DNA from: Eledone cirrhosa
Taxonomy: Eukaryota
Length of the DNA: 64,000 nt
Direction: 5' to 3'
Assembly: GCA_964016885.1 (NCBI GenBank)
Contig: OZ024745.1
Location: 125,178,001-125,242,000 of the forward strand
Shown: piece by piece, positions 13,575-63,150 of the stretch
Layout: each line of letters opens with the position of its first letter
Position numbering within the stretch: the first letter of the stretch is position 1
The notes under the pieces: model-generated
The model's database searches: none
What the model was told of the DNA's origin: nothing
What the model saw: only the letters and a program-made list of their open reading frames with translations
Position numbers and translations under genes: made by a program

Positions 13575-13790
13575 CGGTCGCTTTGGCGATCATCAGAGCT
13601 ACGTACCCCGAAAAGAGCACCAATCCTAATACCTAATTTTTGCTGGACCGCCAATCGCTCTGTATAATCAGCTCCTGATTATTACTAGAATTCTATAAGA
13701 ATCCTGCTTCTATAATTTTCGGCGAAGGCGGGGGACTACGTAGCTCTGATGATCGCCAACAGCGGAAAACAGACTGTTAGCTTCTCTACC
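13575..13790. repeat. Short element with a 23-bp inverted repeat carrying a degenerate HHR-like motif
   Basis: TTGGCGATCATCAGAGCTACGTA (13583) / TACGTAGCTCTGATGATCGCCAA (13737). The + copy reads AGCT CTGATGA TCGC-CAACA-GCGG AAAA CAGACTG TT AGCT. Confidence 0.45.
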
Positions 13791-13905
13791 TTCGTTCGCC
13801 GAAAAGAATTAAGTGACATAGTCACTACTTTAAAACTGATAGAGTATTGTCTTCAAAATGTTTTTGATTAAACATGCGGTATATTGCCAAATATACTAAA
13901 CATAC

Positions 13906-13939
<34 letters not shown>

Positions 13940-33730: not shown

Positions 33731-33773
33731 ACGATATACTAGTTTCAAGCTTATTAGCTATCGTCAGCATCGT
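33731..33773 (-). ncRNA. Minimal type I hammerhead ribozyme
   Basis: Minus: ACGATG CTGACGA tAGC-TAATAA-GCTt GAAA CTAG TA TATCGT. Confidence 0.8.
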
Positions 33774-53302: not shown

Positions 53303-55282
53303 CACTGGTCAACAGCCAAAATGGTTCTTACATCGGAATATTTTCCTCTTACTAATTTCATAGCACTAAATTCAGTTTTGATATTCAATTTTTGCTATCG
53401 GACCAGAATGCCTTAATATGAGATCGAAAATATGTTCCTCGTATTGCATTATTTATCCATTGTGTAACATATGATGACTTAGATATAAACATATTAACTT
53501 ATTAATAAAAAATATATAAACATATTTTTATTTATTTTTTTAAACACTTAGTATATTAACAAAACATTTCTGAACAACATTCTGAACATAACAAAATATT
53601 TCAAAACATTTCTAAAAAAATTTCTGGATTTTCCTTTTACGCTTGTTTTGCTGGCACTCCTCACGTTACAGTGTCCAGCAGTAGTCACCCATCATGTTGG
53701 GATTGAACTGACCCTGATACCTACTCTCCATTATGACAATGTCCTGGTGAAACCTCTCTCCATATTCATCACTGATGTCTCCTAGATTACTTCGGAAGAA
53801 ATCCAGATGAGAATGGAAGAAATGAAGCTTCAACATCATTCGTGAACCCAGAGCGCGATAATTGTGTATCATGGTTTCAACAATTTCTTTATAGTTGTGT
53901 GCACGGTGGTTTCCAAGAAAGTTCTGTGTCACATCTACAAATGATTTCCATGCATTAGTCTCCAAAGGGTTTAGTGTTTTCGTAAACTCACTATCATTAA
54001 CCAGCATACGAATCTGAGGATCATTCAAAACCCTTGCTTTTAACTTTGCTTCAGATACCACTCTACCCAATTTCTTACACAAGTACTGAAACCCATTACC
54101 TGTATGATCCATGTTTTTAATAAAGTTTTTGGTCAAGCCTAGTTTGAGACGTAATGGAGGGAGGAATACTTTTTCTGGATCCACGAGAGGTTTGTACAGA
54201 CAATTGAATCTACCGGGTGCATCCTTTGGTCTTGTTGGCCAATCCTTCTTCATGTAGTGCTCTGCATCTGCTCTACTATTCCACAAACATAGAAAACACA
54301 TATGCTTTGTGTAACCAGTCTGAAGACCTAGAAGTAGACTAATTAAGTGGTTTATGACGATGACGAGCGGTTGTAATGCGGACGCCAGGTTCCAGCAGGT
54401 TGCGTTGCTTCAGTCTTGTTCCCAGGATCTCTGCCTTTTCTTTAGACAAATGTAGGTCTCTAATGAGATCGTGAAGAGCTTCCTGGTTAAATGGTATGGG
54501 TTCACTTGTCTCATGTTCGTCTTGATAGTCATCATCAATAGGGGTTCTACAGGAATCAGAGATTAGCTCGTGTTCAGCAGGTGGAACTGGAACAGGTAAT
54601 TCGTCAATGTGAGGTACTGATCGGATTGCTGACGAGATATCGGGGTATTGAAGTATAGTTCGTGTCTTCACAGTTATTCCTTGGATGTTTATATAGCAGA
54701 AGTAGCAATCGTTATTGTGGTCTTTTGGTTCTCGCCATACCATTGGTACGGCAAATGGCAAACCAGAGCTTCGTTTCCCATTCTTCCATTCACTTAGGTG
54801 ATTAACACTAGACCTACACGCTATATGAGGCGCCCATTTCTTGTCCTGGTCTCCTAATGGACATTTGAAGTAACATTTGTAGTTTACTCGAACTGCTTTT
54901 GTGATTGGTTTCTTTATGCTTTCCGGGATAAAGAGTCCACAAATATAGCAAAATCGGTCCGGGTCATTTACACTTTTCCGGCGTTCCACTAGTCAAAGTT
55001 GGTGTGAATTATCCAAGAATAGCCGAGGATAGTTACAATTCTGTGATCTGAAACAAAAGCAGTAAATATAAATTAGTTAACAACTAAATATAGTGGATAC
55101 AATTGGAAGAGGTAATATGAGCCACATAGCTATGGGTAATGAACATGGATATGCTGGTTCTCAAAAACTAGACCCGATACAGCTTAACCATTGTCATATT
55201 CACATTCTGCACACTTGATTACCCTAGAATCATACTAAAATATACCAGAACCATGAAATGAATATTTCTTTGTTGACCAGTG
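53303..55282 (-). mobile_element. Chapaev3-type DNA transposon, internally deleted
   Basis: TIRs CACTGGTCAACA / TGTTGACCAGTG, 3-bp TAA TSD (53300-53302, 55283-55285), transposase remnants inside. Confidence 0.8.
53640..54989 (-). pseudogene. Chapaev3 transposase pseudogene
   Basis: FCYICG...GDQDKKWAPH...VWREPKDHNNDCYFC, then a frameshift/deletion at about 54340, then ISLLLGLQTGYTKHMCFLC...HSHLDFF..NLGDISDEYGERFHQDI..MESRYQG..MMGDYCW. Confidence 0.85.
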
Positions 55283-56346: not shown

Positions 56347-56419
56347 GTATATATATGTATTTATGTGTATTGGCAACATGACCCTCCCAAAGTATAACAA
56401 TATATATATATATATATAT

Positions 56420-58581
56420 ATTGGAATAAATGCTCTGAAATAGCGATATATATGTGAATATAGACATAGAATATTCGAAAATATTCTGTATGTTTATAAT
56501 AAACATTTTGAAGACCTAATCGCTATAGAATAGAATACGTCACGTATTACAATTAGATTCTCGATAAAAGCAAGGGAAGTAAGTCTACGCGTTTCATTCT
56601 TGTTAGAATTCATCAGGACTACATATCCAGTGCTTTTATCGAGAATGACACAGCTAGAGACTTATAGAATACTTAGCTGTGTACAGGAACTGGTTTGAAA
56701 GAGCGGTTGCCGGTCCGGCAGAAATTAGAAATTGGAATAAATGCTCTGAAATAGCGATATATATGTGAATATAGACATAGAATATTCGAAAATATTCTGT
56801 ATGTTTATAATAAACATTTTGAAGACCTAATCGCTATAGAATAGAATACGTCACGTATTACAATTAGATTCTCGATAAAAGCAAGGGAAGTAAGTCTACG
56901 CGTTTCATTCTTGTTAGAATTCATCAGGACTACATATCCAGTGCTTTTATCGAGAATGACACAGCTAGAGACTTATAGAATACTTAGCTGTGTACAGGAA
57001 CTGGTTTGAAAGAGCGGTTGCCGGTCCGGCAGAAATTAGAAATTGGAATAAATGCTCTGAAATAGCGATATATATGTGAATATAGACATAGAATATTCGA
57101 AAATATTCTGTATGTTTATAATAAACATTTTGAAGACCTAATCGCTATAGAATAGAATACGTCACGTATTACAATTAGATTCTCGATAAAAGCAAGGGAA
57201 GTAAGTCTACGCGTTTCATTCTTGTTAGAATTCATCAGGACTACATATCCAGTGCTTTTATCGAGAATGACACAGCTAGAGACTTATAGAATACTTAGCT
57301 GTGTACAGGAACTGGTTTGAAAGAGCGGTTGCCGGTCCGGCAGAAATTAGAAATTGGAATAAATGCTCTGAAATAGCGATATATATGTGAATATAGACAT
57401 AGAATATTCGAAAATATTCTGTATGTTTATAATAAACATTTTGAAGACCTAATCGCTATAGAATAGAATACGTCACGTATTACAATTAGATTCTCGATAA
57501 AAGCAAGGGAAGTAAGTCTACGCGTTTCATTCTTGTTAGTATTCATCAGGACTACATATCCAGTGCTTTTATCGAGAATGACACAGCTAGAGACTTATAG
57601 AATACTTAGCTGTGTACAGGAACTGGTTTGAAAGAGCGGTTGCCGGTCCGGCAGAAATTAGAAATTGGAATAAATGCTCTGAAATAACGATATATATGTG
57701 AATATAGACATAGAATATTCGAAAATATTCTGTATGTTTATAATAAACATTTTGAAGACCTAATCGCTATAGAATAGAATACGTCACGTATTACAATTAG
57801 ATTCTCGATAAAAGCAAGGGAAGTAAGTCTACGCGTTTCATTCTTGTTAGAATTCATCAGGACTACATATCCAGTGCTTTTATCGAGAATGACACAGCTA
57901 GAGACTTATAGAATACTTAGCTGTGTACAGGAACTGGTTTGAAAGAGCGGTTGCCGGTCCGGCAGAAATTAGAAATTGGAATAAATGCTCTGAAATAGCG
58001 ATATATATGTGAATATAGACATAGAATATTCGAAAATATTCTGTATGTTTATAATAAACATTTTGAAGACCTAATCGCTATAGAATAGAATACGTCACGT
58101 ATTACAATTAGATTCTCGATAAAAGCAAGGGAAGTAAGTCTACGCGTTTCATTCTTGTTAGAATTCATCAGGACTACATATCCAGTGCTTTTATCGAGAA
58201 TGACACAGCTAGAGACTTATAGAATACTTAGCTGTGTACAGGAACTGGTTTGAAAGAGCGGTTGCCGGTCCGGCAGAAATTAGAAATTGGAATAAATGCT
58301 CTGAAATAGCGATATATATGTGAATATAGACATAGAATATTCGAAAATATTCTGTATGTTTATAATAAACATTTTGAAGACCTAATCGCTATAGAATAGA
58401 ATACGTCACGTATTACAATTAGATTCTCGATAAAAGCAAGGGAAGTAAGTCTACGCGTTTCATTCTTGTTAGAATTCATCAGGACTACATATCCAGTGCT
58501 TTTATCGAGAATGACACAGCTAGAGACTTATAGAATACTTAGCTGTGTACAGGAACTGGTTTGAAAGAGCGGTTGCCGGTC
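56420..58581 (-). repeat. Retrozyme array, left arm: about 6.95 tandem 311-bp monomers, 7 HHRs on the minus strand (56582+311n)
   Basis: TTGGAATAAATGC at 56421, 56732, 57043, 57354, 57665, 57976 and 58287. Confidence 0.95.
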
Positions 58582-58589
58582 TTCAAAAT

Positions 58590-61457
58590 GCGATTAGGTC
58601 TTCAAAATGTTTATTATAAACATACAGAATATTTTCGAATATTCTATGTCTATATTCACATATATATCGCTATTTCAGAGCATTTATTCCAATTTCTAAT
58701 TTCTGCCGGACCGGCAACCGCTCTTTCAAACCAGTTCCTGTACACAGCTAAGTATTCTATAAGTCTCTAGCTGTGTCATTCTCGATAAAAGCACTGGATA
58801 TGTAGTCCTGATGAATTCTAACAAGAATGAAACGCGTAGACTTACTTCCCTTGCTTTTATCGAGAATCTAATTGTAATACGTGACGTATTCTATTCTATA
58901 GCGATTAGGTCTTCAAAATGTTTATTATAAACATACAGAATATTTTCGAATATTCTATGTCTATATTCACATATATATCGCTATTTCAGAGCATTTATTC
59001 CAATTTCTAATTTCTGCCGGACCGGCAACCGCTCTTTCAAACCAGTTCCTGTACACAGCTAAGTATTCTATAAGTCTCTAGCTGTGTCATTCTCGATAAA
59101 AGCACTGGATATGTAGTCCTGATGAATTCTAACAAGAATGAAACGCGTAGACTTACTTCCCTTGCTTTTATCGAGAATCTAATTGTAATACGTGACGTAT
59201 TCTATTCTATAGCGATTAGGTCTTCAAAATGTTTATTATAAACATACAGAATATTTTCGAATATTCTATGTCTATATTCACATATATATCGCTATTTCAG
59301 AGCATTTATTCCAATTTCTAATTTCTGCCGGACCGGCAACCGCTCTTTCAAACCAGTTCCTGTACACAGCTAAGTATTCTATAAGTCTCTAGCTGTGTCA
59401 TTCTCGATAAAAGCACTGGATATGTAGTCCTGATGAATTCTAACAAGAATGAAACGCGTAGACTTACTTCCCTTGCTTTTATCGAGAATCTAATTGTAAT
59501 ACGTGACGTATTCTATTCTATAGCGATTAGGTCTTCAAAATGTTTATTATAAACATACAGAATATTTTCGAATATTCTATGTCTATATTCACATATATAT
59601 CGCTATTTCAGAGCATTTATTCCAATTTCTAATTTCTGCCGGACCGGCAACCGCTCTTTCAAACCAGTTCCTGTACACAGCTAAGTATTCTATAAGTCTC
59701 TAGCTGTGTCATTCTCGATAAAAGCACTGGATATGTAGTCCTGATGAATTCTAACAAGAATGAAACGCGTAGACTTACTTCCCTTGCTTTTATCGAGAAT
59801 CTAATTGTAATACGTGACGTATTCTATTCTATAGCGATTAGGTCTTCAAAATGTTTATTATAAACATACAGAATATTTTCGAATATTCTATGTCTATATT
59901 CACATATATATCGCTATTTCAGAGCATTTATTCCAATTTCTAATTTCTGCCGGACCGGCAACCGCTCTTTCAAACCAGTTCCTGTACACAGCTAAGTATT
60001 CTATAAGTCTCTAGCTGTGTCATTCTCGATAAAAGCACTGGATATGTAGTCCTGATGAATTCTAACAAGAATGAAACGCGTAGACTTACTTCCCTTGCTT
60101 TTATCGAGAATCTAATTGTAATACGTGACGTATTCTATTCTATAGCGATTAGGTCTTCAAAATGTTTATTATAAACATACAGAATATTTTCGAATATTCT
60201 ATGTCTATATTCACATATATATCGCTATTTCAGAGCATTTATTCCAATTTCTAATTTCTGCCGGACCGGCAACCGCTCTTTCAAACCAGTTCCTGTACAC
60301 AGCTAAGTATTCTATAAGTCTCTAGCTGTGTCATTCTCGATAAAAGCACTGGATATGTAGTCCTGATGAATTCTAACAAGAATGAAACGCGTAGACTTAC
60401 TTCCCTTGCTTTTATCGAGAATCTAATTGTAATACGTGACGTATTCTATTCTATAGCGATTAGGTCTTCAAAATGTTTATTATAAACATACAGAATATTT
60501 TCGAATATTCTATGTCTATATTCACATATATATCGCTATTTCAGAGCATTTATTCCAATTTCTAATTTCTGCCGGACCGGCAACCGCTCTTTCAAACCAG
60601 TTCCTGTACACAGCTAAGTATTCTATAAGTCTCTAGCTGTGTCATTCTCGATAAAAGCACTGGATATGTAGTCCTGATGAATTCTAACAAGAATGAAACG
60701 CGTAGACTTACTTCCCTTGCTTTTATCGAGAATCTAATTGTAATACGTGACGTATTCTATTCTATAGCGATTAGGTCTTCAAAATGTTTATTATAAACAT
60801 ACAGAATATTTTCGAATATTCTATGTCTATATTCACATATATATCGCTATTTCAGAGCATTTATTCCAATTTCTAATTTCTGCCGGACCGGCAACCGCTC
60901 TTTCAAACCAGTTCCTGTACACAGCTAAGTATTCTATAAGTCTCTAGCTGTGTCATTCTCGATAAAAGCACTGGATATGTAGTCCTGATGAATTCTAACA
61001 AGAATGAAACGCGTAGACTTACTTCCCTTGCTTTTATCGAGAATCTAATTGTAATACGTGACGTATTCTATTCTATAGCGATTAGGTCTTCAAAATGTTT
61101 ATTATAAACATACAGAATATTTTCGAATATTCTATGTCTATATTCACATATATATCGCTATTTCAGAGCATTTATTCCAATTTCTAATTTCTGCCGGACC
61201 GGCAACCGCTCTTTCAAACCAGTTCCTGTACACAGCTAAGTATTCTATAAGTCTCTAGCTGTGTCATTCTCGATAAAAGCACTGGATATGTAGTCCTGAT
61301 GAATTCTAACAAGAATGAAACGCGTAGACTTACTTCCCTTGCTTTTATCGAGAATCTAATTGTAATACGTGACGTATTCTATTCTATAGCGATTAGGTCT
61401 TCAAAATGTTTATTATAAACATACAGAATATTTTCGAATATTCTATGTCTATATTCA
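58590..61457 (+). repeat. Retrozyme array, right arm: about 9.2 tandem 311-bp monomers, 9 HHRs on the plus strand (58804+311n)
   Basis: GCGATTAGGTC at 58590, 58901 ... 61389; reverse complement of the left-arm monomer. Confidence 0.95.
58804..58842 (+). ncRNA. Minimal type I hammerhead ribozyme of the 311-bp monomer (representative of 16 copies)
   Basis: AGTC CTGATGA ATTCT-AACA-AGAAT GAAA CGCG TA GACT; predicted cleavage after A58838. Enclosed by a 16-bp stem ATTCTCGATAAAAGCA/TGCTTTTATCGAGAAT. Confidence 0.9.
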
Positions 61458-61480
61458 TATATATATATATATATATTTAT

Positions 61481-63150
61481 TTATTAAAATAATAGATTAA
61501 ATTTTAAGCAAAGATACGCTGCTTTCACCTTTAACGGGATCTTCTGAAACTAAAAAAAGTCAATCTGAAAGCAGAAGTAAATATTTCGAAAAACGTTGCA
61601 ACCGAAGGAAGACAGGAAGACGATACTTGGTTCGTGGAAACGTTCCCTGGCAAAGAACGTAAAAAAACGAAGATAATACCTCATTATTTGGAACGTTGAA
61701 AACAATTACACGCAAAGACAAAACCACGTTTATGGTATAACTGAAGTCTTAGCCTAAAATTCTATTTAGGAAACCGAATGATTCTCGGCTTCAGAGTTTA
61801 GAATAATGTAAATAAATTACAGAGGTAATTGAAATCAACAAAAATTAAATATATACCTACACGTATCCATATACGTACATACATATTCATACGCGAAAAC
61901 ACCCGCCATGGGTATGCAAATATAAGCACGTACACAAAAGAACGCACACACATACAGAACCCACGCAACGCCTGAACCCGCACACATACGAATGTATACA
62001 CCAAATAGACATAAAAATATATATTAAAAATATGTGTGTGTGTATACATATAATTATATAAACGTATATAAATATACACACATAAATACGTATAAAACGC
62101 GCCCACACACATACCTACATGTAAATACACATATGTTCGCTAAACTACATCAACCAAAACACAAAGTACACATATACACACACCCTACATACGTATGAGC
62201 CCGCATACTCACATAGACGCAAACCTCACGTATACACATAATCATATGCACATGTACCAGTATATATAATAATATATACGCCTATAACATATACAAGCAA
62301 ATATACGTACGAGAAAGTATACGTACTTTCACAAAACATACAGGTAATATATACTTACCTATACAAATAAGTAATGGTATAAACATAAAATATACTTAGC
62401 TACCACATCAAGACGTAATATATCCGCGTATAGTTCGTACTATCCGTTAGGGTATAATGTGGGGCTGTAATACAGGAAAGTTTTGTGCAATTTATGTTTA
62501 CAAGCCGAAATCGCCTCAGATATTTTGTTTAAGATGTGGTCTTTGGCGTAGAGTATTTTACAGGGCCTCAGCGGCGCAGAGGTCACATGGTCTTTTATTT
62601 CCGTTATACGATCTAGCCTTAGCTACGATCTCCCAGTGTAACTTATATTGGGTGCGGTTGTCTTTTAGACTCCAGATATAAGCTGAAAGTGACGTCATAT
62701 TCCTTCTTAAAGTGTTAAGAAAAGAATAGGTATGCATGTAAAGACTCTGCTTGAATCTATTGGCGGTTAACCCTATGTAGGCCCTACGTGACATGGGTGT
62801 TTCAACCTTACATTTGTAGACAATGTTACTAGAGAGGCATTTCCCGGATGGGGGTCAGTCAACCTGATTCCTACAATTACAGTTAGTACTAGCTACAAGG
62901 TTGCACATGTTCCTACGGCTAGGTAATTTAGCTAAATTTTAAGCTGTGATGTTATGTGCAAGGTTTAGGAGTCGTAGAGTAAGAAATTTTAATGGTATTT
63001 CTATTAAAAATGTTAGTATATTTATGTGCTGGGGCGAAATGCTTCATAATAAGGGAGAAAGATCTTAGTTAATGGTTTTATATATTTGATATATATTTAT
63101 CCTTATCGAGCCCTCTTTGGATTTTTGTCTTCAAATTTATTATTATTACT
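61481..63150 (-). mobile_element. 5'-truncated Penelope-like element: GIY-YIG endonuclease remnant (about 62480-63055) plus 3' UTR/pseudo-LTR
   Basis: Minus: CNCRNQ...GKCLSSNIVYKCKVETPMSRRAYIGLTANRFKQ...TSLSAYIWSLKD...WEIVAKARSYNGNKRPCDLCAAE...LNKISEAISACKHK. Confidence 0.9.

Follow-up and report, generated by a model that had tools for sequence, protein, structure and literature searches.

Two opposed hammerhead-ribozyme arrays in an (AT)n tract of Eledone cirrhosa point to a retrozyme primed from both cut DNA ends

The stretch analyzed here, a 64,000-nucleotide window of the Eledone cirrhosa genome (contig OZ024745.1 of assembly GCA_964016885.1, positions 125,178,001 to 125,242,000), contains a non-coding tandem repeat element with a minimal hammerhead ribozyme in each unit, and the family to which this element belongs is almost certainly a retrozyme. 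A recount confirmed several features that a first-pass annotation had read from the letters of the window, namely the exact 311-bp period, the ~16 units (7.0 + 9.3), the lack of an open reading frame (ORF; the longest stop-free run is 59 codons) and the exactly two substitutions (57540 and 57687), both of which lie within one left-arm unit. That annotation had described one tandem array, but it overlooked an inversion at 58578-58590: Tandem Repeats Finder identified two reverse-complementary arrays, the second reported as 58590-61466, such that seven of the predicted cut sites fall on the minus strand of the window and the remaining nine on its plus strand (Table 1). With the monomer numbered from the base that follows the predicted cut after GUA (position 1), the left arm has its outer end at position 166 (L, long) and the right arm at 131-140 (S, short), so that the outer ends run into (AT)n at differing fixed positions, which the annotation had likewise not noted; the S-arm match extends to 61466 through an internal (AT)4 with one C-to-T change. 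The 8-nt insert at the central junction matches the start of the right arm, and this junction was found once in the 3.0-Gb genome.

Table 1. Coordinates of the two-armed element in the window and of its parts.
Feature	Position	Strand	Description
(AT)n target, left half	56400..56421	.	final AT common to the L end of the element
L arm	56420..58581	-	7.0 tandem 311-nt units; 3' end outward, at monomer position 166; carries the sole substitutions
Tail	56420..56454	-	monomer positions 132-166; present at the L end only; putatively the stretch separating two reverse transcriptase start sites
Central head-to-head junction	58578..58590	.	4-nt microhomology and 8-nt insert
S arm	58590..61457	+	9.3 identical 311-nt units; 3' end outward, at monomer position 131
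Minimal type I hammerhead, one example	58804..58842	+	predicted cut after 58838
Parts of this hammerhead	58804-58807 with 58839-58842 (stem I); 58808-58814 (core); 58815-58828 (stem II)	+	stem III palindromic
16-bp outer stem around the ribozyme, one example	58778..58867	+	58778-58793 with 58852-58867
(AT)n target, right half	61457..61476	.	at the S end

The same architecture recurs in other insertions of the family, the target of which is likewise (AT)n tracts. We listed matches to the two end types on positions 1-201.7 Mb of contig C1 (81 L, 100 S) and paired those facing outward within 20 kb of each other; all 52 of the resulting tail-out pairs consisted of one L and one S end, and 77 ends were left unpaired. 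Loci were fetched for the 52 pairs, for four more matches with the window's 34-nt variant and for 44 of the 77 unpaired ends, and when these 44 were read individually 32 proved to be two-armed with a variant partner end, 10 were one-armed (7 S, 3 L) and 2 were unclassifiable, from which we estimate that ~85% of loci are two-armed and about one in seven single-armed. Central junctions were scored at 89 loci, nine of which had an outer end that was unclassified or lay beyond the fetched stretch; the two-armed loci with both ends classified were L+S without exception (80/80, 79 of them independent, two loci sharing a junction by local duplication). More than one unit was present on both sides in 64 of these 80, and arm lengths did not differ overall (median 974 bp for S and 1,167 bp for L, p 0.36), the S arm often being the longer. 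At either end, the DNA strand coming in from the flanking sequence is complementary to the ribozyme strand, which is what priming of both genomic 3' ends on ribozyme-strand RNA would predict. Telomerase-like addition of (AT)n at the S site was considered and rejected, the AT runs at L and S ends showing no difference (medians 20 and 23 nt, p 0.77). At two loci, L075 and L079, the two outward flanks open with inverted copies of one sequence (48 and ~12 bp, respectively), perhaps reflecting templated repair at the cut.

The sequence variants carried by the arms link the two halves of most insertions. We distinguished 24 arm haplotypes, and the two arms had identical haplotypes in 57 of 62 fully covered loci, compared with a mean of 7.1 and a maximum of 17 in 20,000 permutations. 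In addition, nine loci had a variant fixed in both arms and absent from every other sampled locus, e.g., L069 over 22 full units. At L064 the units of either arm, counted inward from its outer end, carry two haplotypes in the order A,A,B, a mirrored mosaic that supports in-register copying from one molecule and rules out a template switch in one arm only. We regard it as likely that the two primings are coupled on one template.

Each locus has its own central junction, and none was inherited between loci except in one local duplication. Junctions without an insert had microhomology of at least 2 nt in 41 of 61 cases, against 0.19 for random joins, and inserts were present at 28 of the 89 junctions, those inspected being mostly local copies; foreign inserts were a 54-bp piece of another repeat family (L184:2850-2903) and a GC-rich 272-bp segment (L190:1269-1540). 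At L031:1905-2244 the central junction itself is duplicated with a 173-bp period, which suggests that the template was switched back and forth as the ends were joined.

The motif AGTC-CTGATGA-ATTCT/AGAAT-GAAA-CGCG-TA-GACT on a 16-bp stem, which the first-pass annotation had taken for a hammerhead ribozyme, is present, and in the predicted ensemble its stems I and II pair (probabilities of 0.76-0.99 and 0.84-0.93, respectively) and the outer stem also forms. Only 2 of 20,000 shuffled monomers passed the same hammerhead descriptor. Stem III is too short for the monomer, and a duplex in trans through its ACGCGU palindrome is predicted at -9.5 kcal/mol. An Rfam search of the window, a check that had been proposed earlier, gave no match at the gathering score, the best being a weak match below cut-off to Hammerhead_HH9 (17.8 bits with a cut-off of 52, E 0.16). 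We aligned 15 sequences, the window unit and 14 pieces of sister families (two further rows were left out), in which 95% of cells pair and both sides have changed in 14 of 24 pairs; the catalytic 3:8 pair is C-G in seven and U-A in eight of them and is broken in none, and the 16-bp outer stem also covaries across the sister families. Based on these compensatory changes, including that from C3-G8 to U3-A8, the ribozyme appears to be under selection. U3-A8 is a known hammerhead variant of Penelope-like elements (PLEs) (PMC4209133; as for all papers cited here, the statement refers to the part of the text that was available).

The family is large and dispersed. A conserved 30-mer had 16,447 exact matches in the genome, i.e., at least 16,447 units or ~5 Mb, and the window's exact 34-nt ribozyme variant had 1,148. 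The two fixed end types, which lie ~26-35 nt apart in the monomer, gave junction counts of 1,083 (L) and 1,311 (S), so that the dispersed copies anticipated from the window alone number over 1,000, and by scaling from C1 we infer roughly 1,700-2,000 loci in the genome. The main subfamily has a 310-nt unit, and the window's 311-nt subfamily differs from it at three positions. Because 85 of 134,850 bases within arms deviate, the family appears to be very young. The tail motif with a different continuation had 5,681 matches, and almost all of the 30 loci taken from among these proved to be fragments of older sister families, whose full units, where present, measured 317-322 nt. Another short family forms small palindromic insertions in (AT)n (L127, L130, L132, L183, L186 and L198), and its core and stem II closely resemble those of the young family. 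Among the sequencing runs listed as containing the sequence there was no RNA run, which speaks neither for nor against expression. Short-read contigs from sequencing run X1 have loose (AT)n ends at 58667 and 58698, which match the S and L sites, and runs X4, X5 and X6 (labelled as three other organisms; their kind is unrecorded) each have one closed 340-bp contig with the 310-nt form, which fits tandem DNA as well as a circle.

A genome search for drivers gave 10,595 candidate GIY-YIG frames, of which 150 were scored. From these, 44 loci were fetched (the 30 top loci and 14 chosen in most cases because their open frames were long), which make up only a small part of the PLEs in the genome. ORFs with both a reverse transcriptase (RT) and GIY-YIG were found in L121, L124 and L127, a CxxC finger precedes the nuclease in L121 and L123, and the atlas neighbours of L121 bear HTH_animal and GIY-YIG. 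The CxxC finger is a feature of Neptune and Nematis (PMC8557442). Two-armed copies of autonomous RT plus GIY-YIG families also occur, each with one short and one long outward end in (AT)n (L128, L106 and L134). The only tail-homology matches in the 44 loci were to other short ribozyme repeats nearby. At L121:2200-8400 there is a Neptune-like PLE with a 938-codon open frame flanked by direct repeats, in which there is a minimal hammerhead of the U3-A8 type whose palindrome is ACCGGT.

Taken together, the element in the window is probably a non-autonomous Penelope-like retrozyme that inserts when the two ends of a DNA cut are both primed on a single RNA, in most cases circular, which is then copied repeatedly. 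As in the known class, ribozyme-strand tandem units would be transcribed and cut after GUA, probably as dimers held by the ACGCGU palindrome, and the cut units would be ligated into 310/311-nt circles. A PLE protein with RT and GIY-YIG activities, presumably supplied in trans, would cut both strands of an (AT)n tract, the target seen at the insertions, and both new 3' ends would prime, perhaps simultaneously, on the same RNA molecule, in line with the polarity of the arms, the one-of-each ends and the shared haplotypes. Priming at the short site would use the internal AUAUAUAU at positions 132-139, and at the long site, ~166, a 2-nt match. Each RT would lap the template a variable number of times and pass the ribozyme cut without a stop, as the multi-unit arms show, the usual template being a monomer circle and sometimes a multimer, and the two cDNAs would be joined head to head by the microhomology-mediated end joining, often with short templated inserts, that is recorded in the junctions. 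The earlier suggestion of a young retrozyme lacking long terminal repeats (non-LTR) and mobilised by a Penelope-like RT is thus well supported by the dispersal of the family, the covariation of the sister families and the PLE hallmarks (tail, inverted arm and (AT)n target). Its further suggestion of a rolling-circle cDNA of a 311-nt circular RNA stands in part: there are two opposed cDNAs per insertion and not a single one, and a monomer-circle template is likely but unproven, with L064 to the contrary.

Several observations weigh against this interpretation. The arms differ in haplotype at 5 of the 62 loci, and those of L170 begin with different haplotypes and are unmirrored; L064 needed a mosaic multimer and not one monomer circle, unless both RTs switched jointly; and recurrent variants in a few long arms (L054+L055, L040 and L041) point to some expansion after insertion. 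Among the 44 GIY-YIG loci and 30 of the 5,681 tail-motif loci there was no PLE whose tail is homologous and which could thus be the partner. The ribozyme may be weak or of low activity given that stem II lacks the canonical G10.1-C11.1, called highly conserved in PMC4209133, its first pair being A-U in the window unit and U-U in the 310-nt main subfamily. Among nine Xenopus dimers, eight were without cleavage in 10.64898/2026.07.22.740005. With a purified PLE, uncleaved RNA was the dominant in vitro substrate and ribozyme cleavage was not required (PMC11167929). Finally, all family loci examined except that of the window are from contig C1, and the 15 sequences of the covariation alignment are related, so that the shuffle control overstates significance.

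The strongest competing explanation retains the coupled primings and replaces the circle with a long uncleaved multimer, from read-through of an arm or a rolling-circle transcript, that is copied without circling. The mirrored mosaic at L064 and the preference of the anole PLE for uncleaved RNA (PMC11167929) favor such a template, and it too predicts no stop at the cut site; yet among stretches with at least four ribozyme units L064 is the sole true mosaic of common haplotypes (1/76; a flag at L065 was due to two separate elements). Of 89 testable minority states 75 are unmirrored, and the 14 mirrored ones come from L064 (12) and a tie at L051 (2), leaving 0/75 elsewhere, although unmirrored states may post-date insertion and hence bear only indirectly on the circle. 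The 24 haplotypes are homogeneous over whole arrays, which calls for a one-unit bottleneck followed by amplification, and no parental junction was copied to another locus, the local duplication excepted. The inner ends do not cluster at the position of the ribozyme cut (4 of 160 lie within 5 nt of it, with 5.7 expected; uniformity is not rejected, p 0.12). Because minority states are unmirrored, L064 is the only mosaic, cut-site ends are not in excess and junctions are not inherited, we consider a monomer circle to be, on balance, the usual template, and a multimer in its place unlikely.

It is more doubtful that only one priming was RNA-templated and that the second arm was copied from the DNA of the first, the other (AT)n end invading the internal AT tract. 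Such copying would account for the haplotypes shared by the arms, for the mirrored L064 and for the one-of-each rule, and the S site matches (AT)n over 8-9 nt. Against it, at many loci the S arm exceeds the L arm in length, with no overall difference between the two, S outnumbers L among one-armed loci, L170 is unmirrored, and a purified PLE extends both strands on RNA (PMC11167929). Fold-back self-priming on an antisense template, the published account of the same head-to-head arrangement in PLEs (PMC3846280), is very improbable here and largely refuted for the window's family: a few junctions are near-palindromic, but at only 7 of 87 are the joined positions 15 nt or less apart (8.7 by chance), and the fixed L/S pair of outer ends would be left unexplained. 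An origin at the DNA level seems just as remote. Long inverted arms and a TA-rich target do recall fold-back transposons, here with repeat-filled arms, and a satellite could have grown by unequal crossing-over from a solo repeat, local amplification being proposed in 10.64898/2026.07.22.740005 and seen in a few long arms; but each locus, bar the one local duplication, has its own central junction, only one of the two termini has the tail, and the polarity of the ribozyme strand is fixed. Inverted duplications are a known artefact of long reads, and the window junction was not among the joints listed for four sequencing runs (which says nothing of its absence), but ~90 loci with one geometry, distinct junctions, non-palindromic centres and private haplotypes, together with both end types in short-read contigs, make an artefact of assembly or long-read fold-back the least credible explanation.

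Other repeats lie near the element. To the left of the target, between microsatellite tracts, is a solo 35-bp 3' end of a different repeat family (56368-56402), which resembles a lone tail and had 19 matches among the fetched loci. To the right, 61478-61800 on the minus strand belongs to an older repeat family, of which it is the 3' part, and contains a hammerhead-like motif that is degenerate; it ends in the same (AT)n tract and had 81-91% matches (best of 21) in the fetched loci. This (AT)n tract has been struck by several families in succession. Elsewhere in the window we identified a one-armed older sister retrozyme with a core that looks intact and a short-site end in (AT)n (13613-13919), and two further hammerhead-like motifs on the minus strand (5772 and 33767), that at 33767 resembling the unit of a 490-510-bp tandem repeat in L131. 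Two overlapping minus-strand frames with Cys/His motifs (53669-54992; 217 + 247 aa) resemble a decayed DNA transposase, although they had no match in Pfam.

The ~1,700-2,000 near-unmutated insertions that we estimate, with their arms, start sites and private haplotypes, constrain questions about both PLE insertion and the retrotransposition of circles. They have added ~5 Mb of young palindromic DNA to host microsatellites, and two-armed insertion is a route by which satellite-like arrays can arise at full length. The two-armed architecture makes an open step in PLE transposition amenable to specific tests, for which the 310-nt unit is an in vitro substrate, and suggests coupled copying of one RNA by both ends of a DNA cut, a missing step in Penelope-type movement. 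More tentatively, PLEs may integrate as an asymmetric dimer, with two RTs from one double-strand cut loading ~30 nt apart on the same RNA, in which case a small ribozyme-made circle would give repeated laps and two opposed satellite arrays per event. If so, a single reaction would give rise to the tandem pseudo-long terminal repeats (pLTRs) of PLEs as well as to their tail and inverted 5' copy, and this family would document at population scale, and for the first time, that circular RNA is copied into the genome of an animal.

In twin priming of L1 elements, two target-derived primers act on one RNA to give an inverted 5' part joined by microhomology, but this happens in a minority of cases, the second site varies and the halves do not overlap. 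In the window's family two arms are the rule and not a minority, the second site is fixed and both arms repeat the same sequence. L1 twin priming is named in 10.1101/2021.12.20.472354.

The retrozyme class itself is already known: non-LTR retrozymes and the model of circles copied into multimers have been described (PMC7229834, PMC7761336, PMC4209133), and a PLE origin of retrozymes has been put forward (Li, Clavereau and Pollet 2026; 10.64898/2026.07.22.740005). The window's family shares with metazoan non-LTR retrozymes (Cervera and de la Pena 2020, PMC7229834; 10.64898/2026.07.22.740005) the non-coding tandem units of 170-400 nt with a type I hammerhead in each, the dispersed loci, the co-occurrence with PLEs and the proposed multimeric cDNA from circles. 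Those retrozymes are, as described, head-to-tail, whereas the inverted second arm, the fixed start sites and the microsatellite target belong to the window's family; the integration step is left as a hypothesis in the available text of both papers. In agreement with the first-pass annotation, which knew of no description of this family, our literature searches (covering few subscription journals and no supplements) found no paper on it, on two-armed retrozyme arrays or on the one-of-each rule, and in the literature found the two-armed architecture is undescribed for retrozymes. Inverted pairs have been glimpsed before, as some hammerhead motifs lie 100-700 bp apart on opposite strands (PMC4209133).

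Closer counterparts are the endonuclease-positive (EN+) PLEs of the Neptune/Poseidon type (PMC8557442, PMC3846280, PMC4209133), which have in common with this family an inverted, 5'-truncated copy, (TA)n targeting, a 30-40-bp tail at one end, a minimal hammerhead with a palindromic stem III and the U3-A8 core variant. The window's family differs in having no ORF and in that a 310-nt unit is repeated over multiple laps in each of the two arms, and its junctions do not fit the antisense self-priming to which the head-to-head inversions of EN+ PLEs are ascribed. The PLE tail is often at one end only, and the origin of this one-sided tail and of tandem and inverted PLE insertions is called undefined in PMC8557442. 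A purified Anolis Poseidon PLE (PAc) cuts and extends both strands of an AT-rich target and, as in the family described here, has two adjacent internal start sites that bound the tail downstream of the ribozyme (PMC11167929). In vitro PAc showed no strand preference for these sites, and the later steps were left open in the available text, whereas the Eledone cirrhosa insertions have one start of each kind and one haplotype per insertion.

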